A stretch of 64,000 nt of DNA from a virus. Lineage: Duplodnaviria; Caudoviricetes. The stretch spans positions 3,312 to 67,311 of the IMG/VR virus record IMGVR_UViG_3300032327_000961. The stretch is one strand, 5' to 3'. The notes beneath the pieces are model-generated. The model made no database searches. It worked only from the letters and a program-made list of their open reading frames with translations, and had not been told where the DNA came from. Shown here one piece after another: positions 28,801 through 54,291 of the stretch. Within the stretch, counting starts at the first letter, position 1, and every line of letters begins with the position of its first letter. The position numbers and the translations under genes are program-made.

Positions 28801-31800
28801 TAGCTATTTCTGGTGAAACTTTTACAGTAGTCATTGTACTTGCTGCTTCATGTACGGCAAATACAAATGTGTTATTGTTATATAAAAGTTGTTTAGCTAA
28901 TAATAATTCTCTATGAGAAATATTTTTAAAAGTACTTCCGTCTGCATTTTTATCTGTGTAATCAATACCTCCAAACCCTCTTAGAGTTACACCAGACATA
29001 TTTTTATCACTGAAGAAATTATATTTATAATACTCAGGATTTTCTTCCATTATTTTAGCAGCTTGTCTTGCTCTTTTAGCTGCTAAGAATCTAAATAAAT
29101 AAGCATATTGAGATTTTTTTTCTGCATTTTGAAAATTACCTTCTTGTGAATCATATCTAAGATTAGAATTGGCTAAACCAATAACTTTTAACCTTGTATC
29201 AATTTCTTTCTTTTCTTCAGACCTTTCATCTTTTCCTATTATGTTATCTTCTTCTACATAATCTAGGAAAGGATTTTTATAAATAAAATTTGAATCCCCA
29301 GTTGCTTTTAAAGCTTCATCTATAAATTTTGATTTTGATAAATTAGGTTTATTCAATATTATTTGAAACATCATACTTAAAGTATTAGGAAACGCATATC
29401 CATCTTCTAATTCATTAAGTTTAAGAATAGTATTTTTTTCTAAATCAATACCTATATTAGACAAATTTCTTTGAAACTCATTAATATCTATTAATAAAGC
29501 TTTATCTTTTTCAGTAAAATTAAAATTCTGTCTAGCTATTATACCTGAAATTGCTTTTAAAGATTCTTTAAATTGATTTCTGTTATTAGATATTGCTTCA
29601 TTAAAGTTATTTTTTTGTCTTTGTATTTCTACTAAAACTTGAGATTGTCTAGTTGCATTATAAAGTCTGGTTTTAGGATTAGAAAAATCAGATTTAATAA
29701 TCATTGATTTAGATCCTTCATCCCAACTTTGAGCACCTTCTATTAAACAAACATCACTTTCAATATATTCTTTTTGTCCATACTGAAAATAAAATAATTC
29801 TTTAAAATTATTATTGAGTAATTTTACAACTGGTTTATTTGTATTAGCAACATCTGTTTTATTTAAACTATCTGTAACATCTTTATATTTAGCTAATATA
29901 AGAGCCATATTATTATCATTTTGTGCTGCTTTTTCCATTCTAGTTTCCATTTCTTTTATGGAATCACAGCCTACTAAAGTTGCATTTAAAACTTTATTTA
30001 CAGCACTTAATGGTAAAACAGTTGGTACTTCAAAACCATTAGGTAGTTTTTCAGTAGAAGGAATGGTTGATAAAAATATTTTTAGTACTTTACTAATTTT
30101 ATTAATACCACCATTTTCAAACATATTAGCGTCATAATCTCTGTTTTTATCAGAGTTTTCATTTTCTTCAGCAAAATCATTTTCAATATTTTCTATTGCT
30201 AACAAATCATTAAGATTTGTTATTGCTTGATTTGCTTGATCTAAGATTATTTTAGCATTATTAGTTGCTTTTTGACTACCTGTTTCTTTGTCTAATGCAG
30301 TTGGTCTTAAATAAGCGTTAGCCATTTTAGAAGAATCTTTTGGCAAAACTCTCCAACCTAATCTTTTTAATTCTTCTAATAATTTAGGATCGCTAGGTGT
30401 ATCTTTTGTATATGCTAATAATGCGTTATTCATTGCATTTGTAACCTCTTCTTCTGTTACAAGTTGCATATAAGTATCATTTACATCTCCAGTTTTAGTT
30501 TCATAAGCCACTTTAGAACTTACAAGAGAGTAAATTAAATTATGGGCAATAGTACTAGGAACTCCTGTTAAAAGTTTATGTGCTACTAAATCCCCTTCTA
30601 CATTTAATACAGTTGCATTTCTAAATCCTCCATTTTCAATCTTCTTAAATAAAGATGAAATTGTATTTTCTCTTTTTGTAAAGAATGAAATTAAATTCTT
30701 TAAATATCTAAAGATTTTATCAAACAAAGCTTGAGGTCTGTTATTCATATATTGCTGAAACTTATCAGCTAAATGTTCTTCTGCTATTCTATCTACTACT
30801 TGTTCATCAGATAATCTTCTGTAATTAGGATTAGAGGTTCTAAATATAGCAATTTCTTCTCTGCTAATATCACCTAATTCTTTTTTAGCTAAATTAAGAT
30901 AATATTGTTTTTCATAAGGAGTTAATAAACTTCTATATACAGCATGGAATGCTTCGTGATATTCAGTTCCTTTTTCAAATGCTTTAGCTAAATAAATTGT
31001 GTTATTTAAATAAGCACCTAATTCTTGACCTGTTAAAGTAATTCTTCCTATTAAACTTTCTATACTATCTATAGAAATTTCTTTAGGTAAAATTCTTTTT
31101 AATGTTTTCCTTACTTTTTCTAAATCCTGAACTGTTAAATCATTATTAGTTTGTAATTTAAAAGGTACATCGGCGTATTCTGGATTTTTAAGTTTACCTT
31201 CTTTATCATAAATATATAACAAGTTGTTATACTTATATGCTCCCATTGTTCTATCAAGTACAATAGGTCTTTCATTACCAGATTTATCTTTTAAATAATA
31301 TTCATTTCCATTTTCATCTTTTGGATAATACTCTTTACCGTTTTTATCTATTGGATAAATAGGTCTTCCAAAAAAATCATACTTTGTTTCTTGTTGATTA
31401 ATATTTGGTGCAGAAGTAACTTTTGTACTTGTAGTATCTGTTGGATCATCTAAATCTTCTTCTAGTTCAATTCCTGCTAGAGAATCATCAACTATTTTAG
31501 TTTCTCCTAATGATTGTGTTTCAACTGATATAGGTTGTATATTTACTCCATTTAATATAGAAGTTTCTGAATCATTTACTATTATATTTGCATTTTGTAC
31601 ATCTTTAGTAGCAGTAGAGGAATTTGGATAAACAACTATATTACTAAATATTTCTTCATTAACTAAAGGAATAAAGTCATCATAAGTTATTTTTTTATTA
31701 GAAATAGATATTTTTCCTTTATTACCTAAAATATTTTCATTCCATATTTTTAATCTTGCTTGGTCTTTTCTTAATAAAGGACTTGCTTGAAAAAGATTAT

Positions 31801-34800: not shown

Positions 34801-36418
34801 TATTTACTTCTTCATAAGATAAACTTGTTAAATCTTTAGCATGATCTTCAAATTCATCAAATCTATCTGTTTTTAATAAACTATCAACTTTTGCAAATAA
34901 AACATCATGATCTTCATTTTTATATTCAAAATCGTCATTATTTAATATTGCTTCTTGTTTTGCATCACCTGAACCTTGATTAACAGCAGCATTTTGAATT
35001 CTAGCTTTGTATTTTTCACCAATAGTATCTGATATTAATCTAAAGTCTTTATTTTCATTATAAAGTTTAATTGCATTTTCAACTTGTTTTTTTTCAAATA
35101 CTCTTGAATTTCTATTTAATAAATAAGAAGCACCTCCCATTCCACTACCTATAATAGCACCAATTAACATTTCTGTTTGACCTTCTGTAGTCCCAACAGA
35201 TTGTTTAAATCCTTCTCCTATAGATTCATAAATATCTAAAAGACTACTTTTATTTCTGTCTTCATCTCTTTTAGCAAAATAATCCGATGAAGCATAATTA
35301 AATACTCCTTGTAGCCCTTCTTCTCCTGCTTCTACTAGTGGTAATTTAAGAGCATTTAAAGTATTTTTGCCATATTTAATTGTTTTTTCTAATCCAGTCT
35401 TTGCAGTTTCTTCTACTAATTCACCTGCTGCATTTTTTATTAATTTACCTGCTATTGATTTTCCATACTTTAAAGGTTTAAATAAAGCTTGTATTTCAAA
35501 AGCATTTGTAACTGTAGATAATGCTGCATTTAAAGCAAAATTTACATTCCCTGCTTTATTTGCTTTATCTAATATATCTGCTTTGTCTTGTTCTGGAATT
35601 AAGTTTTCATCTTCAATTCCTAATTCTTTCATTTTCTCTTCTTTTAATCTTTGAAGAGTTTCAAGTTTAGTTCCTCTGGCTTCCGCAGCACCTTCATGAA
35701 TACCTGTTACTGCTGATGATTTTGCTAAACTAGTAGCATTTTTAAATACAACAGCTTTATTTAGTTTAGTTGCAGCTTCTAGTATATTTTCACCTTTTGA
35801 TACTGCACTTATTAATTGATTAGCATGAGATTTAAGAGCTAGTTGTGAAAGTAATTTTAAACCTCTTGCTCCTCCTTTTGTGTACACACTAGCACCACCT
35901 GTATAATAAGCTTCTGCTGCCATTTCAGCTACAAAACCTAAAGCTTCTGGAAGTGTATCACACCATAATTTAGAAGTACCTAATTTTTGCCAAGCATTAT
36001 AATCTTTTTCTTTTTTAGGTTCATAATTAGGAAATTGCTTTGTAAAATCTTCGTAAGTTTTATTTACAAAACTTATTGCATCATTATCATAGATTTTTGA
36101 AAAATCTCTATTAACAATAGCTGATCCTACACCATAACCTATTGCAGGTAATTCTGCTGCACTTTTAACAAAGTTTCCTAAAAACTTAGCACCACCATTA
36201 CCTAGTTCATCTAAATATCCTTGATTATTTGCTCTAATTTCATTTTGATCAAATAAAGGACTTGATAACCTACCATCAAATTTTGAATCTTGAGGAAAAG
36301 CATTATTTTGAAAACCTTGTTCTTCAGGTTTAGAAATAAGTTCTTCTGGACTGAAAAGTGGTTTTGGATTTTCAGAAACAGGTTTTGCTTTATTAATAAC
36401 TACTTTTTTCTCAGGCAT
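22817..36418 (-). CDS. Virion-packaged RNA polymerase polyprotein (phi14:2 gp66-like) with accessory domains
   Basis: 4533 aa. GYRIPTQ...LSGADFDVDSLY carries the DxDxD catalytic motif (26672..26686). It also has two HExxH motifs, a PD-(D/E)XK domain and a NADAR-like segment. Confidence 0.9.
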   Translation of the reverse strand: MPEKKVVINKAKPVSENPKPLFSPEELISKPEEQGFQNNAFPQDSKFDGRLSSPLFDQNEIRANNQGYLDELGNGGAKFLGNFVKSAAELPAIGYGVGSAIVNRDFSKIYDNDAISFVNKTYEDFTKQFPNYEPKKEKDYNAWQKLGTSKLWCDTLPEALGFVAEMAAEAYYTGGASVYTKGGARGLKLLSQLALKSHANQLISAVSKGENILEAATKLNKAVVFKNATSLAKSSAVTGIHEGAAEARGTKLETLQRLKEEKMKELGIEDENLIPEQDKADILDKANKAGNVNFALNAALSTVTNAFEIQALFKPLKYGKSIAGKLIKNAAGELVEETAKTGLEKTIKYGKNTLNALKLPLVEAGEEGLQGVFNYASSDYFAKRDEDRNKSSLLDIYESIGEGFKQSVGTTEGQTEMLIGAIIGSGMGGASYLLNRNSRVFEKKQVENAIKLYNENKDFRLISDTIGEKYKARIQNAAVNQGSGDAKQEAILNNDDFEYKNEDHDVLFAKVDSLLKTDRFDEFEDHAKDLTSLSYEEVNKLEGSKFTSEQEKNDKIASLVKKANEIKGLHEKITSFVLPISDDLKDRMIYNASNTKDLEEREDKLSAEILAFTASKGIPIDYNQIKSDFENNPNRISVAQETLNKLADLEIPKVGNDTDVKTSSNNILNGLEDYKQTLVTNTLDKIDSESVEKTLSETKAPARPRTEKGKFAAFDDAYRQKIKDHQEKVKQLKDKIASITNISYQDRLDIDKKASDLLRIAQKREALYRNYEEMFSFADLVKKGIVSENKTKKNEVAVEEPEKENLESQVSATTEDNNVEDGFENSDIDFNGQLTPIYVNEDGSYSYETPSSENPPNPPNPTQPPNPDPTDPNPSSNTTNPTNPTPAPVTNPTTNPVSNPVSNTTNNSNPSSNQQQTNQKTQRSSIATTFDNSVSLINAIQEENSKKTIKQDNGYYTIEGEKYLRVSRAFKKVFGKEERLPASSKIKVKDINTGLDVETDIFQDKAIEQNSAKTAIAFGNLVDALFKSAIARINNPKNIKLISYESLLDYDVNTHDARSKELYKVVEKEEFEKLKEEIRKTVNKLNEDYQLYTDVNAFNEKVNIAGEIDVIGVSKKDGKITIFDVKNSKNSFDSNKVNYSIQLQAYTSLLENKKEYLKGNIDNKIIFFETTHFDNSKKISNVKPPVIQNLDSTKESDQVKKFLDNPLFKGHRLFNFQTKYLPEDQKKFDSQNELRNEYYSFLINPSSVNLTANEPFVVYNDNGQFNAYVKVQTYKNNVRKEEVVSLGYLATKNQLENQFKQLREFKDASKNYVLTQDLIDRYKDWEKDLINLGKFQNELKVNKQMYVQLTIKDRISFNNKATLPLSELIKKTPFAKNGKPYRVSENKVFELLDNGDERLVKLEDVPQLGKDGVPIPGLYFLLDEFNNRKRRISGTTVNLNIAELNKISVKITDLLEQVEKVNTKEFTEKAAKELNNLIFIKNQTSQNTIQFEPDYFKVKDKDGVVTKEGNIIKIRISTKGDNNNIIADFILGYHVTIEQDNLFQASPLLRKDQARLKIWNENILGNKGKISISNKKITYDDFIPLVNEEIFSNIVVYPNSSTATKDVQNANIIVNDSETSILNGVNIQPISVETQSLGETKIVDDSLAGIELEEDLDDPTDTTSTKVTSAPNINQQETKYDFFGRPIYPIDKNGKEYYPKDENGNEYYLKDKSGNERPIVLDRTMGAYKYNNLLYIYDKEGKLKNPEYADVPFKLQTNNDLTVQDLEKVRKTLKRILPKEISIDSIESLIGRITLTGQELGAYLNNTIYLAKAFEKGTEYHEAFHAVYRSLLTPYEKQYYLNLAKKELGDISREEIAIFRTSNPNYRRLSDEQVVDRIAEEHLADKFQQYMNNRPQALFDKIFRYLKNLISFFTKRENTISSLFKKIENGGFRNATVLNVEGDLVAHKLLTGVPSTIAHNLIYSLVSSKVAYETKTGDVNDTYMQLVTEEEVTNAMNNALLAYTKDTPSDPKLLEELKRLGWRVLPKDSSKMANAYLRPTALDKETGSQKATNNAKIILDQANQAITNLNDLLAIENIENDFAEENENSDKNRDYDANMFENGGINKISKVLKIFLSTIPSTEKLPNGFEVPTVLPLSAVNKVLNATLVGCDSIKEMETRMEKAAQNDNNMALILAKYKDVTDSLNKTDVANTNKPVVKLLNNNFKELFYFQYGQKEYIESDVCLIEGAQSWDEGSKSMIIKSDFSNPKTRLYNATRQSQVLVEIQRQKNNFNEAISNNRNQFKESLKAISGIIARQNFNFTEKDKALLIDINEFQRNLSNIGIDLEKNTILKLNELEDGYAFPNTLSMMFQIILNKPNLSKSKFIDEALKATGDSNFIYKNPFLDYVEEDNIIGKDERSEEKKEIDTRLKVIGLANSNLRYDSQEGNFQNAEKKSQYAYLFRFLAAKRARQAAKIMEENPEYYKYNFFSDKNMSGVTLRGFGGIDYTDKNADGSTFKNISHRELLLAKQLLYNNNTFVFAVHEAASTMTTVKVSPEIAKIQFIEKDKATPALIKAFKGIIDQDNYVKDKMLSLVKDKGIEGKLLDLNSPELEGLSLNIHYSIPKGTRKAQVLSEEHPTVAYNYNTIHHSDIENINSGEENLGVRFPNSRDAAKLTDKELEAEINQYLEDEYQAFGKMLPDYELTSKELFDVSKEDDLRKQVKEYLAKDFIIRHSYQDIIRGEEGNLNIYKNDGDVTKRGKGSIAAGAAPVIYERIRQNDGSFDIEEEQDFTIAINETVIKDLPKFGKTEVDDGGSYDTIERAYKVAKGLGKLTFHTDLLFQVLLENEYLKNYYRDLNTVKTSKAKSSQQYKEVLKRVNKGIQHYRDLELIKKTEEKFKGIDKKSVDNIVTKANKEITNLLISRKFVLVDGSIYAKTAVINLNRETTSKWVESNGIGEWMALEGRDHLHGLLNKMYANKVDVVFTTSSMKGRKENVNYLEDGKYPDVLKTVKAKNNTFRLQMENPSGKLKITDGTQLIQLIDSELDNDTVIDYNGKETTLQTLRDDYQANLAKIREISLNYVKEDLKNVSGFYDYLVDNLISSQGDPNMIEYLSKNAQGLPNYSIDLPNIQNKFEEMFIAYFNSNAFRQKVPGLKLTLVPSEGLAKTDGTPLKLHNYVKGADGKYTFEYAEVLLGAEVLVQNGLTEKEVLDNPALANEIMKMLGYRIPTQSHHSMLPFKVVGFLPSFMGSVVACPSEIVALSGADFDVDSLYAQRKEFTKHRVKFEKDGETRYKTVYSVFNRDKNKKINPNATQEELDQVEFNDFISQIKKNNNKLSDKFDELKDTLKEGQTKLDLIKDLLFDFGYPSTVEELVNHKDYSNYQYNKYAVNNSLLENRLAFFETVQDENVIEGMFTPASIDKLKQVKEILSDIFEKEPTFSYNSLLTQFNHWRSNTISKKNVGIAAVANAISAYLTKLNYKFETTKIKDGAPVVTISKTPEIDGYSSEGINKINEEDIVLVKKDGKVTILLDEKGDYKKTYSRKADSLSTTLSVATDDIKELICAALNLTDKMVPTFTFMLANGYGLTRSSLFISNPILRKASTIKNANPSFKLKEILGDLIANNIKKVESDLARVENKLANYKIFVNEEAATKYGERPEYRNTYSAGKDSEIDSIIAKYKLNLNDVIEHNNKGFGLDYYSVENYSENGLIPLTSQDMLNTLQKPNLITEIQIAKRFIQFEEMSDKFFSPFREFLALNRGIDSKFYAAEELLDKIDTTDNIDFKQIIDNDKVVSQNISATRTIISGASDYTLLQNYSVKTHIDAIVGNIFTDYKKSENKANYIKGFVNYLGLQKMREYLSIKEGEGVFDKYLEKGIPLINKKDKNNIVERYKTLLLSHPELAQNQFIANLVVNEKNGVSILEFNTRMKGDSSFKEAIANAFIDLQLNENLDVQSFATALYNTILFKDGLKFRNGTYISIINPTIMKNYSNGLLELTDRDELAKLLEKTNIEHYTELYISNYNYRTLVKTPDFGKYIESGLLVRKENPDKSIVYEYDKSKATDKSFIKDSFPKYSRVNYAKENWVLRRNQDKTFSLINVAEFKSNSAINPYVFKDNKQKNIVLSNYFKESLTNENTNTREDLENGVENPIKSVQKPVEQPKVEPSKVNQTSSKTQEISSNEKGLYGALTNPTEISFKKGNITEKYEFEYQGEKGTAEQIYQKLKVGNVNDELRGYDYNLMVDIIKAKFAAYPRLKEAFLKELNKGVVFTHQPTNKPSIWHTNNGKDYFIKALTEAATGKKVFNPFTLNNQIEEVVKPEDNNTPNGLDETISTSVDWSKFGKQKLSTAKIIGFTQLNKILKKLSKKFGLPTEYVSSKGNWFGRYNSLTGKVEINTNYDLRLDTPFHEFAHPFIEAIRKTNPELYNRLAQGVIEEGNILSQIQQLYPELSYDEAVEEAVVQSLGELAANKIDNKTLIDSILDFINEIKNKIANILGIPRSMVILDVNTTLSDLADMMTDDSTISLDVLGLKDNYLQENEDLLNQLVAKGLIKLTCKV

Positions 36419-36478: not shown

Positions 36479-38224
36479 TTATTGTGGTAATTCTCCCAAA
36501 TAAGCTTTCAATATATCTCCTTTAAACATCTGTTTTGATAAAGTATCAAAATCAACTTTTTGAGTTTCAGATTCAGTAAACTTAGGATTTGATTGATTTG
36601 GATTTGCCATTACTTTTTTAATATCATCAAAAGTAATACTTTTATCTTTTGGTGTTAAAACTTTATAAAATACATCTGTACTTTTATCTAAAACTGGTGA
36701 TGAGTTTTCACCTACTTTTACTCTTGTATTAGTTCCATTTGCATAAACATAAACTCTTCCTGTTTTATCATCATAATAAGGAACATAAGAAGCTTTTCCG
36801 TCATTAATTGATTTACCCAAAGTGTGCAATACTTGATAACTTTGAGTATTTTCTACACTTTTTGGTGGGTGCATTACAAATGTTTTTACTTTTTTTCCAT
36901 CAGGACTACTTGCAGTCATAAGCATAGAAGCAGGAGCTAATCCACTTGTAGGCATAAATGCTAAATTTGTATTTACATTTTTTACATCATCTACTCCTAA
37001 TTCATCTTTCACAAATTGACCAAAGTCTTCTGGACTTACTGCATTACCTTCTTGTGTAAACCATGCTCCTTTGCTAAATGCTAATAAAGGATCTTTCATG
37101 TCATTACCCAAATAAGTTTTAGCTAGTTGTTCATAAACTTTATTATCTGCTATTGAAAGTATTGTAGGATTTGATTTATTTGAATTTAAATATGCCTTAT
37201 CAAACTCTTCTGTACTTTGATTAGGATTTGATTTTTTAGCTTCTGCTAATAATTGATTATATTGAGCAGAACCAATTCCATCAGTTTTATTTACAAAATC
37301 TCCTTGTGGAGTAGTAAATTGAAAACCACTTACAGAATCAACTAATGGAACTTGTGATGTTACTACATTTGTATTTTTTTGTTTATATATATGTTCAGGT
37401 GCATAATTAAACTCACTTGTACTTTCATTAAATGCTCCACCTTTAGTATATTTTGTAGCAAAATTAACCATTTGCTTCAAAGACTGTTCTGGTGTTAATC
37501 CATATTGTTTTGAAAACTTCCTGAGTAATTGTTTTCCTGCTTGTGTATGAGAATAGTTATTAACTATATAATCAGCAGTTAATCCTTCAATTTTAGCTAA
37601 ACCAATTCCTCCTCCTCCAAGTTGTACTCTATCTCCAGTTACAGGATCTATTTTTGTATATCCATATTTATCAGCTTTAAATTGTTTTGCAAAATCAGAA
37701 ATAGGTTCCATTATTTCTTTATCTAGTAAACCTCTTTCTACATTATATGAATAAGGAGTAAGATTTCCATCTTTTCCTATTGGATTCATATCTTTTTCAT
37801 GTAAATAATCTTGATACCTACCATCTTTTTTTAATTCAGCAATTTCTTTTTGTTCTTGTTCATATTTCCCTTGATTAGCAATTAAAGTTTGTAAGTTAGG
37901 ATCTGCAATTAACTTATTACTATAATCATTAACTGCTTTTTTAAAGTTATAAGATCCATAATCATTGTGTGAATCTGCTATAGCAGTAAGGTTTTTATTT
38001 ACATCTTCTACAAATTTATTTCTATAAGCAGCATCTCTTTCTCCTGCTCCTCTCACAGAATTAAATAATCTTTTATTTTGATTATATAGTTCTTCATTTT
38101 TATCCCAATTTTCCTGTCTTCGTAATAAATTACGCTCAATAAGCTCCAAGTTTTTTGGAGCAAATTGAGAAACGTAAGTTTGAAAAGGGGTTGAAGCAAT
38201 AGGTTCGTTATATCTAGTTACCAT
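36479..38224 (-). CDS. Virion cargo/ejection protein (581 aa)
   Basis: Between the cargo-1-like gene and the RNAP; N-terminal TPFQTYVSQFAP followed by a coiled coil; contains KYTKGG. Confidence 0.6.
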   Translation of the reverse strand: MVTRYNEPIASTPFQTYVSQFAPKNLELIERNLLRRQENWDKNEELYNQNKRLFNSVRGAGERDAAYRNKFVEDVNKNLTAIADSHNDYGSYNFKKAVNDYSNKLIADPNLQTLIANQGKYEQEQKEIAELKKDGRYQDYLHEKDMNPIGKDGNLTPYSYNVERGLLDKEIMEPISDFAKQFKADKYGYTKIDPVTGDRVQLGGGGIGLAKIEGLTADYIVNNYSHTQAGKQLLRKFSKQYGLTPEQSLKQMVNFATKYTKGGAFNESTSEFNYAPEHIYKQKNTNVVTSQVPLVDSVSGFQFTTPQGDFVNKTDGIGSAQYNQLLAEAKKSNPNQSTEEFDKAYLNSNKSNPTILSIADNKVYEQLAKTYLGNDMKDPLLAFSKGAWFTQEGNAVSPEDFGQFVKDELGVDDVKNVNTNLAFMPTSGLAPASMLMTASSPDGKKVKTFVMHPPKSVENTQSYQVLHTLGKSINDGKASYVPYYDDKTGRVYVYANGTNTRVKVGENSSPVLDKSTDVFYKVLTPKDKSITFDDIKKVMANPNQSNPKFTESETQKVDFDTLSKQMFKGDILKAYLGELPQ

Positions 38225-38225
38225 A

Positions 38226-41200
38226 TTAGCATTTGTTTATTTTAATTTTTTTAGAACCGTATTTTTTCTGACTGACTAAATCTTTTTTGTAATTTGGATC
38301 TAGTGGGTTATATGTAGAAGGATCAAACATTGAATTTTGACTAGTTACAGCATTAGGAATAACTCTTGTAGTTGTTGTAACTGGTGAAGTAGTTCTTGTT
38401 GTACTACTACTGCTACTACTAATAACATTATTATTGTTGTTATTGTTATTAGCACTGTTTCCTTTATCAGTAATTACATTTCCTTCATCATCATTTTTAT
38501 AATTAGCAGTCCTTAAATTATTAATATATTGTTTTTGATTAGCGTCATTTTTTGCATCAAGTTGTTTTTGATAACCTTCTTGTCTTCTTAACATAAGTTT
38601 ATCATCAGTACCTTTCATAGCTTGATCAAAAGACCTTTGTTTAATTCCTAATCTTTGTTCTTTTGCATCATTATACATATCATATCTAGGTAAATTGTAT
38701 TTTTGAGCATCATTTTTAACATCGACATTTGCATTTGCTATTCCTGTACTTTGAGTTGCTTCAAAGTTATTTATATCAGCAGTTTGCCCATATTGAGTTG
38801 CTAAAGCATTTGCCATATTTGCTCTTACATTTCCTGCATTTCCAGAACCTATATTTCTAGCATTACTTACACTCATGTTTTTATTTTCTAAAGCAGCTCT
38901 TCTATTAGGATCTGATTTATCTTGATATTGATAAAGTTCAGGTGTATAATATCTTTCTGGTGCTTGGTAAACAGGAGTGTTACTTTGATATAAATTATTT
39001 AATTCATTTACATAAGGCATTGGAAAATCTTTTGGTTTTACTTCTTCCTTTTTATTTTCTATTTTTACTTCCTTAGTTTGTTTTTCAGTTGTTTGTTCTT
39101 TTTCTTTCTCTTTTTCCTTTTCCTTTTCTTTTTCCTTTCCCTGTTGTACAGCAGCAGGTCTATCATCTAAATAAGGAGTGTTTAAATCACCATGTTTTCC
39201 ATCTCCCATTCTTACTTTGCTATAACCTTCAGTATCTTGTGTTATTGAAGGATCTACTTTATCAGTTCCTTTTTTAACATAAGCAACTTTTAATTTTGCA
39301 AAATCATCATCAGATCTTAAATTATTATATTTAAACTTTCCTATTTTTGCAGAAGGAACATATACATTTCCTTTTTTATCTTTTTTATAACCTGTTCTTT
39401 GAGTACCTGTATCACCTGTTTTTGCATTTGGAAAAGTACCACCAAGATTTATAGTTCTTTGTTTAACAGTTCCTTTATTTCTAATAATTACATTTTTTCC
39501 ACCATCAACATATTTTTCAGATTTATCAGAAGGAAGTTTTTGTCTTTCTTTTTCTAAAGCTTTTTTATCACCTGCTGCAATTAATCCTACAATTTTCATA
39601 AATTTACTATGATTATTTTGAGTAGGGAAAACTACATCTCCATCTTTAGCTAAAACTTTATTTCCACCTTTACTATGTGGAATACTTCCAAAGTTTTTAA
39701 TATTAAAGTTTTTATCAGTATGAATTTCAGGAGTTCCTTTTCCTTCTATTTCAATAACAACATTTTTACTTATAGTTTTTCCATCTTCACAATTCCACTT
39801 CCTTAAAGCTTTATTAATTCTGCTATCAGGATCATTTGCTGTTTTTGCACTAGTAAGTTTCTTTTTCATTCCTCCCATTCTTGCACAAAAACTATCTCTT
39901 CTGCTTCCTCCTTCTGGTTGAGGTGCTTTTAAATTAGCTCCATTTGCTTTATTATAAGAATCTCTACCTTTTTGATTTAATCCACCATCAGGATTTTGTC
40001 CTTCTTTTCTAGTCCAAACAGTTCCTCCTTTTGCATATTTAGTAACCATTCCTCCTTGTTTAAATTTTTTATTTAAAGTAACCATATTTTGTTTATCCTC
40101 AGTTTGCTTGTTTGATGCAAAATAATTAACATCTTTTGGTTTTACTCTACTTTGATATTTTTCTAACATTACTTTATGTTCAGGTATATTTGAATCTAAT
40201 ACCAACAAAGTATCGTCTTTCTGAATATCTTTCAAACTAGCTTGTACATATTGACCTTTTGCATTAATACATCCATAACTAACATTTGCTTTATCAGTAC
40301 CATAAAGTTTATCCCTAACTTTAGGATCAGCAGTTTGGTGATAAGCTAATTGTTTGACATCAGGTTTTTTTAAACCATTGTGCTCTATTGGATTTAAAAA
40401 ATTAATGTTGTTGTTATAATGAGATTTAGTTTTTTTATTAATTCCTTTATCACTTAATTTATAATAACCATAAGGGGTACTCATACTAGGATTATCAGAT
40501 TTTAATGAATTAGAATTTAACTCTACATTTTTTCCTGTTAAAACATCGTATTCATAATTATTTTTACCATCTTTATTCAAAACAATAGCTTTATTTTTTC
40601 TTTTATCCACAACAATGCCATCTCTAAGTTCTTGTGAATAAGAAGTTTTTTTAATGTTATTAACATTTTCACTTTTTATTTTTTTTTGGGCATTGATTGC
40701 TTTATATTTTAAACCTGTTAAAGGGTCTGTTATATTTCCTTCTGAATCAACTTTACCTTTTTCTGCTCTAGCATAACCTCCTTTATTTTTTTTATATTGT
40801 TCTAATAAAGAAAGTTTTTTTAAATCAGAATTTTCTTTAATTGACTTTGAACCATCTGGATATTTATTATTTATCTTACGTTCTTGCTTTAACATTTCTT
40901 TAGTAGGTTTTCTACCAGAACCTTTATTCTCCCTGATAGAATCCCATAATCCATGTCTGCTATAACTACCATCTGCTCTTTTAATTAGACCACCCTTACT
41001 ATATTTATCTACATCTTGTTGTGGTACTCCATTTGTAATTGGTCTTTTAGCATCATAAACTTCACTTCTTGTAGGTGTTTTAAATTTATCTATTAAACCA
41101 TTTATCATTCCTAATCCTTGATTTACCATTTGCATTTTTCCTCCTCCCATATTAGGAGTTCCTCCTGCATTTCCCATTCCTTCCATACTACCTTGCATTC

Positions 41201-42515
41201 CTCCCATTTTAGATAAACCAGCCAGTCCTTCTGCTCCACCCATTCCACCTGCTAAACCTGCTAAACCTGCAAAATATTTATTAATCTTTATATTGCCATT
41301 TCCTTTTTCCATTTTTCTTTGGTTATTAGTACCTAATCTTGGAAAAACTTTATCTTTAATTCTGTAAAAACCTTCTTGTACTTCCTGAATAACTTTTGGA
41401 TTTTCTTTATTTACATGACCAATTAATTGTCCTTTATTATTGTAAAAATGCTTTACATTTCTAGATCCTTTACGGGGATTATCTTTTGGTTTTTCTACAG
41501 GAGATGTAACTGGATTCTCAGGTATTTCTTTTTTAGTTACTCCTACTAAATTTAAGTCAAGATCTTTTCTTTTTTCTGGAATTAAAGGTCTTTCAGGTAA
41601 ATCAAGTTTTTTTAATTTACTTTGTCTTGTATCTAAATAAGCAGAACCTTTATCTCCATATATTCCACTTCCTACTCTAACTTTAGAATATTTATTTGAA
41701 TCAAAATTTTCTTCATTAATACCATCTACAATAGTATCAGTTCCTTTTAGTACATACGCTCTTTTAAGATTATTAAATTCTTTATCAGAATAACGAGAAT
41801 TAAACTTTTTATCTCTTTTTTCTTTTCTAGCTTGAAAACCAAGTCCTCCTGTATTATCAGAATTATTTGTTGCTCTGTTATAAAATAATCCTATTTGTTT
41901 AGAAACACTCCTTTCTTGTGGGGTATTAGGATTTTCTATTCTGAAGTTTTTAGCATCGTCTTCTATTTCAGAAGAACCACCTTCATACCTCTTTGTTATT
42001 TTTACTTTTTTAGTTCCCATTTTAAAGTTTACTTTTTGGTTTTTAGTCATGTCATTACCTGCATAAGATTCAGCATATTTTCTTGCTGCTACAATATCAT
42101 CTGCTTTTTTCTTTTCTCTTTCAAATTGAGTTTTATCAGATTCTCCTAATAAACCATAAGAATAATCATTAGCTAAACCTTCCCAGTTTCCAGTTGCAAT
42201 ATGTCCAACCATATCAGAACCTTTAGTTAAAGGGTTTAATTGAGCTAAGTTTTTAGCAGTAGTACTTTTATAATTACCGTCTTTATCTTTTGTAAATTTA
42301 CCTGCTATTCCATCTGCTGCACCTAATGCAGTTCCTACTCCAGGTGCAAAAGCATCTACTGCTGTTGATGCAACTGTTTTGTAAGCTGAACCTGCATTAT
42401 CAGATTTCATTTTTAACTTCTGCATTTCATAATAATCAGGAGTATCTTTAAAGTAATTAGTATTTACTGAATTACTTCCTGTATAATACTTTCTTTTTAT
42501 ATTTACCTTTTTCAT
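38226..42515 (-). CDS. Modular virion cargo protein (cargo-protein-1-like) with YkuD-like domain and repeated K[YF]xxGG motifs
   Basis: Directly downstream of the muzzle gene; glycine-zipper segments; H...SYGC L,D-transpeptidase-like motif; duplicated modules. Confidence 0.65.
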   Translation of the reverse strand: MKKVNIKRKYYTGSNSVNTNYFKDTPDYYEMQKLKMKSDNAGSAYKTVASTAVDAFAPGVGTALGAADGIAGKFTKDKDGNYKSTTAKNLAQLNPLTKGSDMVGHIATGNWEGLANDYSYGLLGESDKTQFEREKKKADDIVAARKYAESYAGNDMTKNQKVNFKMGTKKVKITKRYEGGSSEIEDDAKNFRIENPNTPQERSVSKQIGLFYNRATNNSDNTGGLGFQARKEKRDKKFNSRYSDKEFNNLKRAYVLKGTDTIVDGINEENFDSNKYSKVRVGSGIYGDKGSAYLDTRQSKLKKLDLPERPLIPEKRKDLDLNLVGVTKKEIPENPVTSPVEKPKDNPRKGSRNVKHFYNNKGQLIGHVNKENPKVIQEVQEGFYRIKDKVFPRLGTNNQRKMEKGNGNIKINKYFAGLAGLAGGMGGAEGLAGLSKMGGMQGSMEGMGNAGGTPNMGGGKMQMVNQGLGMINGLIDKFKTPTRSEVYDAKRPITNGVPQQDVDKYSKGGLIKRADGSYSRHGLWDSIRENKGSGRKPTKEMLKQERKINNKYPDGSKSIKENSDLKKLSLLEQYKKNKGGYARAEKGKVDSEGNITDPLTGLKYKAINAQKKIKSENVNNIKKTSYSQELRDGIVVDKRKNKAIVLNKDGKNNYEYDVLTGKNVELNSNSLKSDNPSMSTPYGYYKLSDKGINKKTKSHYNNNINFLNPIEHNGLKKPDVKQLAYHQTADPKVRDKLYGTDKANVSYGCINAKGQYVQASLKDIQKDDTLLVLDSNIPEHKVMLEKYQSRVKPKDVNYFASNKQTEDKQNMVTLNKKFKQGGMVTKYAKGGTVWTRKEGQNPDGGLNQKGRDSYNKANGANLKAPQPEGGSRRDSFCARMGGMKKKLTSAKTANDPDSRINKALRKWNCEDGKTISKNVVIEIEGKGTPEIHTDKNFNIKNFGSIPHSKGGNKVLAKDGDVVFPTQNNHSKFMKIVGLIAAGDKKALEKERQKLPSDKSEKYVDGGKNVIIRNKGTVKQRTINLGGTFPNAKTGDTGTQRTGYKKDKKGNVYVPSAKIGKFKYNNLRSDDDFAKLKVAYVKKGTDKVDPSITQDTEGYSKVRMGDGKHGDLNTPYLDDRPAAVQQGKEKEKEKEKEKEKEQTTEKQTKEVKIENKKEEVKPKDFPMPYVNELNNLYQSNTPVYQAPERYYTPELYQYQDKSDPNRRAALENKNMSVSNARNIGSGNAGNVRANMANALATQYGQTADINNFEATQSTGIANANVDVKNDAQKYNLPRYDMYNDAKEQRLGIKQRSFDQAMKGTDDKLMLRRQEGYQKQLDAKNDANQKQYINNLRTANYKNDDEGNVITDKGNSANNNNNNNNVISSSSSSTTRTTSPVTTTTRVIPNAVTSQNSMFDPSTYNPLDPNYKKDLVSQKKYGSKKIKINKC

Positions 42516-42516
42516 A

Positions 42517-45500
42517 TTATCTGTAAAGTTTTCTTAAATTGTAAGTTACTGAATGTAAATCAAAAACACAGTTATTACCTGAACTATCAGCATTAAAAGC
42601 TAAATGTACGATTAAATATTTAGAATTTAACCTATTTCTTGCCCCATTTATATTTGGGTTATTAGAAGTTCTTGGAATACAAAGTCTATATTCAGAACCT
42701 ACTCTTCTTACTAACAATTGATTTACTGGAATACCTTCTTCAAATCTGTTTAAAACACTATCAAATACCTTAAAAGACTTTTCCAATGAATCATCTTTAT
42801 TATATTTAAAATTACCTAAAGTAAAGAAATAAGATATTAAAGTTTTATCATCTTTACCTTGATATATACTTTCAAGATAACAATCCATTTGAAAAAATAA
42901 ATTGTCAAACTTTTTTGTTACATCTGGTTCATCATTAATAATAAAATCAAATTGAGCATCTAATCTAAAACCTTTATTATTTTGATTAAACACATTTCTA
43001 AAAGGAGTTTTACTATAAACTTTGTTTCCTACAGAAGCCATCCAATAAAAAGTAGCATCATGTTGAGATACCCAAACATTTTCTTTAGGTTTAAAAGAAA
43101 TTGTTAATGGATTAGCTCTTCTAGCATCACATAATATCCATCTTTGATTTTCATAATCATAAGTTGAAACATATCCATTTTCTACATTTGGAAAATATCC
43201 TATTTCTTTTATTCTTTCTTCAAAAAAAGTAAACATACCTAAATCAGATATTTCACTTAATTGGTCTGAAAATAAGAAAATCTTTTTCTGGATATTATCT
43301 ACAATGAATCTTCCATAAGGAGTATTACAGTTTGCCCATTTAGATTGAGTTCCTGCATATCCTCCTTCTATAGATACAAGTTCTTGAAAAGGTATTGGGA
43401 ATAATCCTCCATTTCCTAAAGTTATATCTCCCGAACTAGTTGCTATACTAGTTTGTTCATTCATAAAACCTGCAAATAAACTATATGGAGTTTGAGCATA
43501 TAACCTATTATTCAAAACAAACATATCAGATATTTCACCTTTATGTTTTTGTAAATCTGTATAGTTATTAGGTAAAAATACTCTGTATGAATCTAGTTGT
43601 TCTCCTTCTATGCTTAAATCTGAATATAAAATCCTGTTATTAAAATTACTACTTGCTTCATATAAGAAAGGTTTTGCATACTCTTTAACAAATGTATTTT
43701 TAAAACCATATTGTTTATTATACCCAGTGGAATATCCATTATTGCTAGGAAAATTTAATATCCCTAAAGGTAAATTAGTTCCTCCTATATCCCATATTCT
43801 TTTATATTTAGGAAAATAAGGCATTGTATTTGTATTGGTTTGTAAACCATCATCTACATAATGTCTTAATAAATAATTTTGTTCTGATTCTACATAAAAC
43901 CCAATACAAGTCCCTATTGTAAAATTAGAATTACTGTTTACTAGACCTTGATTAAAAGTTAAAAAGTATTTTTGTATATAAGTATCGCCTCCAAAAAAAG
44001 ATAATTGATTTTGATTTACATCAAAACTATTTCCACAATGGACATATTCTGCATTTTCTAGTTTTCCATATATATTTACACCAGAAGTTTCTACATCATA
44101 AATTTCTACTAATTCGTCATCAAATCTAATAATCTCATGTAAATTATTACTTCCATCTCTTCTATATACTCTATTATTTCCTTGAGCTCTTATCCCTAAA
44201 TTGTAATGAGTAGGATTATTTTCTGTTGTATTATTAATATCTAAAACTACTTCATTTGTATAAGTAGAGTCTGCAAATATTAATTTAGGTAATATACAAG
44301 GAACATTATTATTATTAACAATTTTAAATAAACTTATATCACTTCCAGGTTGGACATTAAAAGGAGTACCTGTAATATAAGTATTTTCAAAAAAAGGACT
44401 ATAATCATAATATTGATTTCTGTTATAAGAACTATATTCTCTATAGTCAACAATTTTTACTTTTACATTATCATTATAATCAGTAATATTAAAACTTGTC
44501 TTTCTACAGTTATAAAAATCACCTGCTGAAGAATTACCCGAATCACCAAAATTAGTAAAAAAACTAGGACTACCTAATGAAGTATATTTAGGATTAGCAT
44601 ATTGAACTTTAGTTAATTTAATATAAGTTCCATATTTAGCTAATGCTGCATTATGTATTAAATCAGGAGCATATAAATTAGCAAATCCTTTTGCATATTG
44701 AGTATTACTAAAACTTTGTCCTACTGAAGAATTACTATTTGGATCATTACTCCAATAAGCATATAAATCAGTTCTTCCTAAATTTGCAGCTATTCTTAAT
44801 TCATTGGCTCCTGTTACAGTCATTAAACCTTTACCAATAGCTTGATATATTTTTTTTCTTTTATTTAAAGCATTTCTTTCTTGTCTTACAATCATATATC
44901 CTTGTAAAACAGATTTCATTTCAGTTGTTAATTCAATATTTAATGCTTTTATACCAATAGTGCATAATAGATCATTTGTAATAGATAGTTCAGGAATATA
45001 ATGGTGTCTTATATTTCCTATTAAACCAGAACTATTATATTCAGTTGGGTAAGATAATCCTGTGTCATATACTTTTAATACTTTGCTAAAATCATTACTT
45101 AAAACACTAGTAAAATTAATGTTAAAAGGATTAACATTTGAATCAAGAGCAGGAATATGATAAGCAAAACCTTTAGTTCCATTTTTAAATATAGGAACAA
45201 ATGCAAAAGAATATATTTCCCCCCTTTTATAACCTACATAATCACAACTATTTGGGTCTTTATAAGTTCCTGATATTTGTCCAGAAGTAGTTGTATCTAC
45301 AAAACCATGATTTAAATCTCCACCTATAGTTATATTTCTTTGTTCTGGAGAAGTTTCATTTAATAATTTAGTTTCATAAGTTAATATAATTCTATTAGCT
45401 ACATATTGAAAATCATAACTTTCTTCTGTTCTAGTTAAATTAGCTAATAATAACCTATTATCTTTTTGGGCAATATGTTTTGCTTTATCATAATAATTAT

Positions 45501-46503
45501 TATCTAACAAAACATCTGTACTTAATAAAGTTCTTACAGCAGTTTCAGAACCAGTAACCTTGTATTGTATTGTTTCCTGACCTCTATTTTCAATAGTAGT
45601 TATTATTTTATAATTAGGTGTATTTTGAATACCTGTCCATGTAATTTGTAATAGCTCTATGTATTTAAAATTACTATCTAAATGAGTTAAATTTAGATTA
45701 ATAGATTTTAAAGTTTCTGTTTGTGGAGGACATCCGTCATAATTTTCACAACTTAGATTTTCAAAATCTTCTACAATAGAAATAGGATTAGTTAATAATC
45801 CAAAAGAAGTAGAGTTACCAGTATTTGTTAAATATCTTGCAGCAAATTGATATTTTCCAGAAAGTAAAGAACCATCTTGGGTTACAGCAGTAGAATTATA
45901 ACTAACTACAGGAAGTAAATAATCAAAAAATAAACTTATATCTTCTTTTAACCTAGTATTGTCAGGTAAATTATCTAAGTTTATTCTTCTAGGTACATTA
46001 TAATTATCTGTAAAATAAACAACTCTTTGATTATTAAAAAAAGTTTTTATTTCAACATCTATGTTATAAGTAAAGTTAAAGTTTAAAACATTTAAAGAAT
46101 CATATACCCAACCTGTTTTTTTATTTATAGAATTTCTAGGATACATTGAGTCATTTATAGAAGTAATATAAACTTTATAAAGATTGGCACCATTAAAAGT
46201 ATCTAATACACCTATTTCAGATTGCCTATTAGTATAAGGAGGAGCATCAATATTATTTACCCCATTAAATAAAGGATTATAAAAACAAATAAATAAAACT
46301 AAATCAGTACCAACAGCAATACTTCCTAATATTTCAAATAAAGGAACAGTACCAGTAAATCCTAAATTTACATCTATTGTTCCTTTTTCATTAGTTATCT
46401 TACCAACATTATCTTTTAGGATATTAAAAGCATTTCTATAAGTATCTGGTGGTTGATTTACAGGATCATTTTGAGTATGTAAACCTTTTATAAATGTTTT
46501 CAT
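42517..46503 (-). CDS. Tail muzzle / stabilisation protein (P22 gp10-like)
   Basis: 1328 aa; N-terminal KGLHTQNDPVNQPPDTYRNAFN, YKRGEIYSFAFV and FFGGDTYI motifs typical of crAss-like muzzle proteins. Confidence 0.8.
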   Translation of the reverse strand: MKTFIKGLHTQNDPVNQPPDTYRNAFNILKDNVGKITNEKGTIDVNLGFTGTVPLFEILGSIAVGTDLVLFICFYNPLFNGVNNIDAPPYTNRQSEIGVLDTFNGANLYKVYITSINDSMYPRNSINKKTGWVYDSLNVLNFNFTYNIDVEIKTFFNNQRVVYFTDNYNVPRRINLDNLPDNTRLKEDISLFFDYLLPVVSYNSTAVTQDGSLLSGKYQFAARYLTNTGNSTSFGLLTNPISIVEDFENLSCENYDGCPPQTETLKSINLNLTHLDSNFKYIELLQITWTGIQNTPNYKIITTIENRGQETIQYKVTGSETAVRTLLSTDVLLDNNYYDKAKHIAQKDNRLLLANLTRTEESYDFQYVANRIILTYETKLLNETSPEQRNITIGGDLNHGFVDTTTSGQISGTYKDPNSCDYVGYKRGEIYSFAFVPIFKNGTKGFAYHIPALDSNVNPFNINFTSVLSNDFSKVLKVYDTGLSYPTEYNSSGLIGNIRHHYIPELSITNDLLCTIGIKALNIELTTEMKSVLQGYMIVRQERNALNKRKKIYQAIGKGLMTVTGANELRIAANLGRTDLYAYWSNDPNSNSSVGQSFSNTQYAKGFANLYAPDLIHNAALAKYGTYIKLTKVQYANPKYTSLGSPSFFTNFGDSGNSSAGDFYNCRKTSFNITDYNDNVKVKIVDYREYSSYNRNQYYDYSPFFENTYITGTPFNVQPGSDISLFKIVNNNNVPCILPKLIFADSTYTNEVVLDINNTTENNPTHYNLGIRAQGNNRVYRRDGSNNLHEIIRFDDELVEIYDVETSGVNIYGKLENAEYVHCGNSFDVNQNQLSFFGGDTYIQKYFLTFNQGLVNSNSNFTIGTCIGFYVESEQNYLLRHYVDDGLQTNTNTMPYFPKYKRIWDIGGTNLPLGILNFPSNNGYSTGYNKQYGFKNTFVKEYAKPFLYEASSNFNNRILYSDLSIEGEQLDSYRVFLPNNYTDLQKHKGEISDMFVLNNRLYAQTPYSLFAGFMNEQTSIATSSGDITLGNGGLFPIPFQELVSIEGGYAGTQSKWANCNTPYGRFIVDNIQKKIFLFSDQLSEISDLGMFTFFEERIKEIGYFPNVENGYVSTYDYENQRWILCDARRANPLTISFKPKENVWVSQHDATFYWMASVGNKVYSKTPFRNVFNQNNKGFRLDAQFDFIINDEPDVTKKFDNLFFQMDCYLESIYQGKDDKTLISYFFTLGNFKYNKDDSLEKSFKVFDSVLNRFEEGIPVNQLLVRRVGSEYRLCIPRTSNNPNINGARNRLNSKYLIVHLAFNADSSGNNCVFDLHSVTYNLRKLYR

Positions 46504-53241: not shown

Positions 53242-54291
53242 TTATAGCAAATCAACAAACTCATCTTTCCTAATATCTCCATTTTTATTTGAATTACTAG
53301 CTTTAGTTGAGTTATCTTTAGACCTACCATCATTAAATTTACTTAATTCGTTTCTAAGTTTTTTTGAAGCTTCAGTTTCTCCTTTAATTGTAAGTTTTTT
53401 TGCATCAAGTTTTTTCATTGTAGCATAAGCTGAAAATAAAGTATTTTCTAAATCTGATGCTATATCTACTTGATATTGTGTGTTACCTTCTTTATTTACA
53501 GGTCTTGTCATGTAAACGTGAAGTTGTTTTGCTTCTAAAGGTGTTATTTCTAAACCTTTAATCTCTCTTGTATTTACGATTTCTCTTTCAAGTTCTTCAT
53601 ACATTCTGATATTCTCAATCCTTTCTTCTTCTCTTCTTACTTCTAAGTTTTGAAAAGCATCTTCTTTTTCTTGTTGTTGAATAAGTCTTAAATGTTCAAA
53701 AGCTGTAACAGCTTCTTCTTGCAACATATCTTTTTCAATAAACTTAGATATTTTGCTATTTATTTGTTCCTCATTCATAGTACCTAGACTTTCTAAGTAA
53801 TTATAAACTAAATCTACATGGCTATCTGGACTATTAAGAATATCTTCTTCTGTATATTCAGAATAATCTGTTTCACCAACCATATCTTGATATTCTTCAA
53901 GAGTTCCTCCTCTCAACATAAACTCAATAGCTTCTTGAGTTCTTGAATCTTCAATGTTATTTAGAGTTTCTTGTATTCTATACTGTATAGTATCTTCTAT
54001 AATTTCCTGCAAACCTTCTTCGCTATCATCATATTCTTTATCTTCATCAAGATATAATAATCCTGATGCTTCTAAATTTTCAATAAAAGGAGCAAAAGAA
54101 GGTTCATTACTTTCTTCTATTGATTCTATTTCATTTTCAGAAACTTTATCATAATCATCATCTAAAAGGTCTATCCCTCTTCCAAATTGCGCATCATCGA
54201 TACTTTCTGAATCACCTTCATTTAAAGGAGTATCAAAATCTGGTAACTCATCATAAGTTACTTTAAACTCTTCTGTTTGGTTGTTTTCCAT
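53242..54291 (-). CDS. Acidic scaffolding-like protein
   Basis: Very D/E-rich, coiled-coil character, directly upstream of the capsid gene. Confidence 0.6.
   Translation of the reverse strand: MENNQTEEFKVTYDELPDFDTPLNEGDSESIDDAQFGRGIDLLDDDYDKVSENEIESIEESNEPSFAPFIENLEASGLLYLDEDKEYDDSEEGLQEIIEDTIQYRIQETLNNIEDSRTQEAIEFMLRGGTLEEYQDMVGETDYSEYTEEDILNSPDSHVDLVYNYLESLGTMNEEQINSKISKFIEKDMLQEEAVTAFEHLRLIQQQEKEDAFQNLEVRREEERIENIRMYEELEREIVNTREIKGLEITPLEAKQLHVYMTRPVNKEGNTQYQVDIASDLENTLFSAYATMKKLDAKKLTIKGETEASKKLRNELSKFNDGRSKDNSTKASNSNKNGDIRKDEFVDLL

Follow-up and report, generated by a model that had tools for sequence, protein, structure and literature searches.

What does a short peptide motif do that recurs seven times along a single phage protein, at the borders of small modules? 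The question is raised by a gene at positions 38226-42515 of a 64,000-nucleotide stretch of the virus record IMGVR_UViG_3300032327_000961 (Caudoviricetes; positions 3,312 to 67,311 of the record, hereafter the window). The motif reads [KR]-[YF]-x-x-G-[GS] in the 1429-amino-acid (aa) protein encoded there, which is predicted from sequence to be the first of the cargo (ejected) proteins in a marine crAss-like phage and to be assembled as a string of small modules that evolve independently. The motif was confirmed to be real, general among crAss-like phages and previously undescribed; neither the Pfam and PHROG matches nor the literature that could be searched contain a description of it. It marks the joints between modules and survives in orthologues although the order and content of the modules change. 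The explanation favoured here, with a probability of roughly 0.45, is an uncleaved handle and hinge element that is specific to cargo proteins.

A first-pass annotation of this DNA had listed seven main copies of the motif, all of which are found in the translation where it had placed them, and the degenerate copies FKMGT, KYFAG, CEDGK and a C-terminal KYGS are present as well. The strict form, K-[YF]-x-x-G-[GS], was observed six times against 0.17 expected from 5000 residue shuffles, none of which reached six, and the loose form seven times against 0.48; the frequency is well above what Lys and Gly composition would give, a check that the annotation had itself proposed. The basic stretch it had noticed near several copies also holds, since the pattern [KN][VI]xIx[KRN] occurs five times (0.03 expected), in this gene only and always beside a motif copy. 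Codons vary among the copies (GGT/GGA, TAT/TAC), so the conservation is at the peptide level and no DNA repeat is involved; a DNA-level recombination signal was rejected on the same grounds. That the repeats have no function, and merely reflect a composition rich in Lys, Gly and Tyr or descent from one duplicated segment, would be in line with a protein of 14% Lys and 9% Gly with one duplicated module. This is so improbable that it can practically be set aside, as the shuffles yield next to no copies, the copies differ in codons and flanks, only two of them lie near the duplicated modules, and an 8-fold enrichment is found in independent proteins. The latter, independent data sets also remove the concern that the pattern was picked after viewing the sequence.

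Across the family the motif takes the more general form hydrophobic-x-x-G-G, which some lineages extend to GG-(W/hydrophobic)-L-x-K-Y-x-x-GG. In PhicrAss001 the cargo protein C1 is gp45, encoded directly after the muzzle gene, and the first-pass annotation had suggested counting the motif across crAss-like proteins. In 80 IMG/VR loci, C1-like open reading frames (ORFs) hold 161 copies against 20.8 expected (7.8-fold), whereas the counts are at or below expectation in the muzzle (25 against 27), the RNA polymerase (RNAP; 4 against 5.8), the ring proteins and the major capsid protein (MCP; no copies in either of the last two). The post-muzzle genes of PhicrAss001, DAC15, p-crAssphage and crAss002 carry 3, 5, 3 and 2 copies (0.91, 0.78, 0.59 and 0.16 expected), in sum 13 against 2.4, and g070 of Cellulophaga phage phi14:2 carries 2 against 0.26. 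A third set was obtained with the mini-module that follows motif copy 3 (aa 504-551 including the copy), named WDNIR, which matched 1014 cluster representatives (775 below 1e-10; 74 to 2173 aa long) in a library of 1.84 billion proteins. The 147 best WDNIR carriers contain 660 copies of [YF]xxGG (80 expected), of which 557 are found beyond the WDNIR module itself, preceding other recurrent, conserved mini-modules.

Within the phage, the K/R-led motif is confined to predicted cargo or internal proteins. Of the 44 ORFs called in the window with a length of 80 aa or more, only three contain [KR][YF]xxG[GS], namely those of the C1 protein (seven copies), the protein in the C2 position (one) and a 306-aa protein (one). 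A tandem [YF]xxGG pair without leading K/R is found near the N-terminus of the predicted virion RNA polymerase, and copies are present in all four predicted cargo proteins of the window. When the looser [YF]xxGG is applied to the entire contig (51 ORFs of 60 aa or more), capsid protein and terminase score too, at chance level.

The position of the motif relative to the modules is best seen by comparing modules embedded in long proteins with the same modules encoded alone. A hydrophobic-x-x-G-[GS] prefix was found on 144 of 157 internal WDNIR modules (92%), with a Gly-Gly-type position in all of them, and the next motif copy lies at most 10 residues after the module in 106 of 154 cases. None of the 24 distinct stand-alone WDNIR genes (44-70 aa) has the prefix; they start with Met-Lys-Lys at the residue after the GG position and end where the next copy would begin. 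Stand-alone DUF6321 genes begin 3-6 residues before the conserved Trp, which is the seam, and DUF6321 units within non-crAss proteins have no motif prefix. The motif is a seam element: it precedes a module when this is embedded in a cargo polypeptide and is absent when the module is its own gene. In the orthologue P0008, WDNIR and DUF6321 are joined by a single motif copy, while in the window gene a module of the type found in the 306-aa protein and a YkuD domain are inserted between them, with copies on both sides. Both the placement of the motif at module borders and the plug-in character of the modules, as claimed at first pass, are upheld by these comparisons: the seams equal the borders of stand-alone genes that exist elsewhere, and orthologues differ in the modules that are inserted between copies. 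A first MAFFT alignment of mixed fragments (A2), in which WDNIR pieces were misaligned, was not used.

WDNIR and DUF6321 look like a conserved pair. In one crAss-like lineage, DUF6321 is encoded on its own (88 aa) and lies together with a WDNIR-led gene of 200-400 aa between ring-2 and ring-1, upstream of the muzzle (L065:8777-17142, L045, L054, L056, L060, L062, L063, L080, L085, L093); in L039 the two modules, each a stand-alone gene, are direct neighbours.

That seams and gene borders match leads to the explanation that the first-pass annotation had put forward alongside a packaging tag: the cargo protein would be a polyprotein in which cuts behind Gly-Gly, made in the capsid or following ejection, release the small modules in the shape that they have as separate genes. 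Gly-Gly-directed processing is known from the adenovirus protease, pS273R of African swine fever virus, polyubiquitin and double-glycine leaders, and as in these systems the GG lies at unit borders, a hydrophobic residue stands upstream and the units also exist alone. Cleavage would account for seams that match the starts of stand-alone WDNIR and DUF6321 genes to the residue, for the fact that the two are neighbouring separate genes in many phages and fused via one copy in P0008, for N-terminal copies that resemble short basic leaders ending in GG, and for the use of GG, a classical processing signal. Two HExxH zincin motifs are located in the neighbouring giant RNAP protein, for which no Pfam family was obtained at E 0.01, and zincin peptidases have been proposed to process phage polyvalent proteins (PMC5512222). 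The fit to a zincin is poor because the residue that follows GG (position +1) varies and is not hydrophobic in the 147 carriers. The hydrophobic residue stands at P5 here but at P4 in the known Gly-Gly systems, and Pfam revealed no cysteine or other GG-directed protease among 34 ORFs (small ORFs left out) of the 67-kb contig; the window protein contains no peptidase family apart from YkuD. The contig comprises 67,311 bases, compared to about 94 kb for a contig of a related phage that shares its gene order; the assembly is probably not complete, and genes such as a protease may therefore be out of view. Moreover, tandem copies 8-9 residues apart, such as copies 5 and 6 and similar pairs in the RNAP N-terminus and other carriers, would free useless nonapeptides.

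The structure of PhicrAss001 bears on the same point. Parts of gp45 are resolved at the portal (residues 425-552) and in the tail barrel (214-245) (PMC10172136). By sequence, residues 425-428 are a motif copy, AFGG, and since the resolved segment is reported as 425-552, this copy is ordered and continuous with the portal-bound domain. Two further copies lie at 208-212, just before the tail-barrel helix, and at 559-563, just after the portal-bound domain, so that two of the three copies are just outside the ends of resolved segments, as expected if cleavage took place there. The authors of the structure read gp45 as one chain that bridges tail and capsid and spans the portal (PMC10172136), and the virion gel bands at 85, 100, 150, 270 and >300 kDa fit full-length cargo, the gp45 band being unreadable. 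Taken with the lack of a GG-directed protease among the 34 ORFs, the ordered copy in gp45 weakens the polyprotein reading, which is considered rather unlikely.

A capsid or portal tag, the other proposal of the first-pass annotation, fits better than cleavage as judged from sequence, because many cargo proteins have a copy at their extreme N-terminus and each of the four predicted cargo proteins of the window contains at least one. A motif copy was found at the extreme N-terminus in 33 of 186 related proteins. The strict motif is present in the first 25 aa, with a basic leader, in 5 of 19 ORFs directly after the muzzle compared to 12 of the 498 others; further post-muzzle genes open with a basic leader of this kind that includes K-Y-x-x-G-G, and the N-terminus of gp45 is alike. 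The 9-mer W-L-D-K-Y-x-x-G-G appears ten times just past the initiator region and ten times internally after GG. Copies at extreme N-termini, and the same 9-mer at N-termini and internally, indicate that the motif is more than a passive linker. The T4 capsid targeting sequence is a short N-terminal peptide common to otherwise unrelated packaged internal proteins; the window element is similar in being a short N-terminal peptide on unrelated cargo proteins, but it has no sequence likeness to the T4 peptide and is repeated internally and at the C-terminus.

A joint without further function, i.e. an Asn/Asp-Gly-Gly turn or hinge that lets mini-modules fold and move independently, would explain why N or D, with G behind it, predominates at the third position of the motif (these are classical turn formers), why 58% of copies have a beta-branched or hydrophobic residue at +2 from GG, and why modules fold without the motif in stand-alone genes. 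Structure prediction with AlphaFold2 (AF2) gives coil or a low-confidence hairpin at the motif. For aa 485-580 (41-sequence alignment; mean predicted local distance difference test score, pLDDT, 60) the WDNIR model is a small hairpin plus two helices, with the motif residues as coil at pLDDT about 50-57 outside the module fold. For aa 905-1012 (mean 64) a core of five strands then two helices was obtained at pLDDT 70-88 with flanks of low confidence and a tentative, low-confidence hairpin across motif copy 7. Both models fit an exposed element outside the module folds and are weak evidence for it. A conserved aromatic or basic residue is not needed by a linker, copies at the extreme N- and C-termini link nothing, and the joints within multidomain proteins of these phages that are not cargo (muzzle, RNAP, tail proteins) are made without the motif; that the element is a structural joint only is thus unlikely.

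In the favoured reading, the motif would be an exposed short linear element that stays uncut in the virion. Its aromatic/basic anchor would serve all cargo modules as a common handle inside the virion, on portal, tail barrel or other cargo, and the Gly-Gly hinge would keep the beads independent, so that the chain could be stored and then threaded through the tail small module by small module. Several points weigh against this. Stand-alone DUF6321 and WDNIR genes without the motif lie in the tail-gene block of one crAss-like lineage, and if their products are packaged, the motif is unneeded for packaging. The seam and gene-border match and the GG itself look like a processing site, and the gp45 evidence against cleavage comes from one copy in one distant phage with a differing motif form (aromatic-GG). 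Some of the counted copies are inside folded domains, e.g. FxNEGG in the CARG1 domain, and a flexible state is weakly supported because AF2 confidence is low (mean pLDDT 60-64). A combination of handle and cleavage can also be conceived as a crass-like "cargo seam code", in which fusion behind hydrophobic-x-x-Gly-Gly would turn any small phage protein into injected cargo; the element would first dock the chain in portal and tail, and a phage or host Gly-Gly-directed protease would then, after ejection, free dozens of small effectors including WDNIR, as in polyubiquitin; this appears quite improbable.

The motif supplies defined residues that can be mutated in studies of packaging, ejection and processing. 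Crassviruses rank among the most abundant of known phages. The PhicrAss001 structure raised the question of how megadaltons of protein cargo are loaded and ejected by them, and a cargo-specific joint signature offers a concrete way into it. The motif also predicts which proteins are cargo in uncultured genomes, delimits modules, two of which are very widespread, uncharacterised small proteins, and documents the recruitment of stand-alone small genes into injected proteins.

The assignment of the gene as C1 is based on its surroundings and architecture. The window derives from a low-GC (about 27%) crAss-like phage, in which the genes of terminase, portal (PHROG match 2.7e-119), major head protein (3e-86), ring proteins and muzzle are all located on the minus strand. 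The MCP is only about 33% identical to those of gut crassviruses, and the phage belongs to a marine, low-GC lineage. The muzzle gene is followed by the 1429-aa ORF, a 581-aa ORF (C2 position) and a 4533-aa ORF (virion RNA polymerase), an order equal to gp44-gp45-gp46-gp47 of PhicrAss001, which gives the 1429-aa ORF the placement of gp45-like proteins downstream of the muzzle and upstream of C2 and virion RNA polymerase. The same neighbourhood, MCP-rings-muzzle-C1-C2-RNAP, surrounds P0008 (1227 aa, 28-35% identical) in a 94-kb contig. A minimal orthologue, P0049 (741 aa), keeps the N-terminal domain, the WDNIR module, the module at aa 917-1000 and the C-terminal domain; its contig, like those of P0064 and P0053, is too short to show the gene neighbourhood.

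Homology to gp45 was not detected directly. BLASTP of gp45 yielded nothing with the window protein (P0001) and E 3.3 with P0008, and hhalign of alignment A1 against gp45 gave a probability of 0.1 with a 14-residue chance match only. The crAss_CARG1 family (PF25725) did not match the window protein at E up to 1, the A1 profile had no match among PDB sequences at E 1, and a locus search with the whole protein as query returned DUF6321 matches only. The profile-profile match rests solely on the mobile WDNIR module, and an iterated hidden Markov model started from the gp45 CARG1 domain was discarded because it drifted into that module, some proteins being fusions of CARG1 and WDNIR. For this reason the gene is treated as a counterpart of C1 in position and architecture and not as a proven homologue.

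In several respects the window protein is similar to gp45 (PDB 7QOG and related; PF25725). Both are encoded directly after the muzzle and before C2 and the virion RNA polymerase, and both have basic N- and C-termini, the C-terminus of gp45 containing YTGG and KAKGG. Both possess a Gly-rich hydrophobic segment, at residues 119-160 in gp45, where a transmembrane helix was predicted at 136-158 (PMC10172136), and at aa ~414-475, within the N-terminal half, in the window protein, where the Gly/Met-rich stretch is of the membrane-segment type of gp45-like proteins. Aromatic-GG copies bracket structured pieces in gp45 in the same manner, and storage in tail and capsid followed by first ejection would be expected for the window protein. 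It differs from gp45 (842 aa) in the absence of significant pairwise similarity and of a CARG1 Pfam match, in the added YkuD, DUF6321, WDNIR and duplicated modules, and in the K-Y-x-x-G-G form of the motif compared to aromatic-GG. The protein also resembles the polyvalent proteins (Iyer et al. 2017, PMC5512222), being a large, probably virion-delivered string of unrelated small domains including a cell-wall enzyme: YkuD, DUF6321 and at least six modules defined by homology were found, within the 2-15 unrelated domains of that class, and other WDNIR carriers hold ART-PolyVal, M23, LysM and Zeta-toxin domains. A zincin or other peptidase for self-processing is a common though not obligatory part of polyvalent proteins; the window polypeptide is without a peptidase domain, HExxH motifs being found only in the neighbouring RNAP protein, and its modules are much smaller (45-85 aa); neither "linker" nor "glycine" nor any seam motif occurs in the text of that paper (PMC5512222).

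The modules named at first pass, i.e. YkuD, DUF6321, the duplicated module and the Gly/Met-rich stretch, proved to be real and are listed with all other features in Table 1. The YkuD domain, which carries a SYGCI Cys motif (aa 746-750), is an insertion in the window C1 that P0008 and P0049 lack; by sequence it is a candidate for a peptidoglycan enzyme carried in the virion. The DUF6321 module is about 78% identical to small cyanophage genes. In P0008 the Gly/Met-rich segment follows KKYPGG, so that the preceding copy is kept though the place of the segment differs between the orthologues. For the model of aa 905-1012 no PDB fold match was obtained with Foldseek (best E 0.09), the quality of the model being too modest to exclude likeness, and VIA-align of this modest-quality model against 48,161 chains had a best Z of 3.7 with no gp45 chain listed.

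Table 1. Features of the window discussed in the text, in the order of transcription of the minus strand.
Feature	Position	Strand	Basis or remark
Motif copy in 306-aa protein beside portal gene (aa 37-42)	55111-55128	-	Pattern search
Muzzle gene	42517-46503	-	Pfam crAss_MUZ 7e-55
Whole gene, 1429 aa, C1 (gp45) position	38226-42515	-	ORF list; next gene after muzzle
Basic leader at the N-terminus, with motif copy 1 at its end (aa 1-14)	42474-42515	-	Sequence
Motif copy 1, KYYTGS, aa 9	42474-42491	-	Translation
Conserved N-terminal domain (aa 15-167)	42015-42473	-	Common to P0008 and P0049
Basic strand and motif copy 2 (aa 169-181)	41973-42011	-	Sequence; degenerate in P0008
Motif copy 2, RYEGGS, aa 176	41973-41990	-	Translation
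Duplicated module, copy A (aa 237-303)	41607-41807	-	43% identity to copy B, E 6e-14
Basic strand, KYFAG and Gly/Met/Ala-rich hydrophobic segment (aa 406-476)	41088-41300	-	Sequence
Motif copy 3, then WDNIR mini-module (aa 504-551)	40863-41006	-	1014 cluster representatives match
Motif copy 3, KYSKGG, aa 504	40989-41006	-	Translation
Motif copy 4, KYPDGS, aa 551, seam after WDNIR module	40848-40865	-	Translation
Module common with 306-aa head-region protein (aa 566-606)	40698-40820	-	BLASTP 55% over 53 aa, E 2e-9
YkuD-type L,D-transpeptidase domain (aa 633-759)	40239-40619	-	Pfam PF03734 1.5e-6, above curated cut-off
Tandem copies 5 and 6, nine residues apart (aa 817-831)	40023-40067	-	Sequence
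Motif copy 5, KFKQGG, aa 817	40050-40067	-	Translation
Motif copy 6, KYAKGG, aa 826	40023-40040	-	Translation
DUF6321 module (aa 832-909)	39789-40022	-	Pfam 1.7e-20 (840-907)
Beta-plus-helix module where gp45 has its portal-binding domain (aa 917-1000)	39516-39767	-	66% identical in P0049; conserved in P0008
Motif copy 7, then basic strand (aa 1001-1014)	39474-39515	-	Sequence; KYPDGT in P0008
Motif copy 7, KYVDGG, aa 1001	39498-39515	-	Translation
Duplicated module, copy B (aa 1062-1125)	39141-39332	-	43% identity to copy A
Conserved C-terminal domain (aa 1165-1345)	38481-39023	-	Common to P0008 and P0049
C-terminal tail, KYGS and basic strand (aa 1417-1429)	38229-38267	-	Sequence; P0008 ends KYGK
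Motif copy in 581-aa C2-position protein (aa 258-263)	37436-37453	-	Pattern search
Tandem [YF]xxGG pair without leading K/R, N-terminal region of 4533-aa virion RNA polymerase (aa 171-183)	35870-35908	-	Pattern search
HExxH motif, aa 1821 of 4533-aa virion RNA polymerase	30944-30958	-	Pattern search
HExxH motif, aa 4383 of 4533-aa virion RNA polymerase	23258-23272	-	Pattern search

The 306-aa protein (54316-55236, minus strand) adjoins the portal gene and has, besides its one motif copy, a 53-aa module 55% identical to C1. It is followed by a 349-aa protein (53242-54291, minus strand), which is extremely acidic and scaffold-like by composition; neither of the two has a Pfam family.

The WDNIR module proper (aa 509-551, 40863-40991; loci L029-L090) is strongly basic, 65-80% identical and often encoded as a stand-alone gene of 47-51 aa. 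It has no Pfam or PHROG family, and tblastn gave no match in 50,697 GenBank phage records. Three carriers (P0128, P0154, P0155) end with GG-W-L-x-K-Y-K at the stop, a truncated form of the seam 9-mer, and another recurrent ending, GG-K-x-x-S-x-W-x-I-I-E at the stop, was seen in P0045, P0051 and P0062. Residues about 93-120 of gp45 align with the WDNIR module of other C1 proteins (alignment A6; L010:30345-32873), with K-x-x-D-x-Y-S ... W-x-D-V-R ... G-S-T-G-Q-R-x-T as matching residues, and gp45 may keep a degenerate WDNIR copy.

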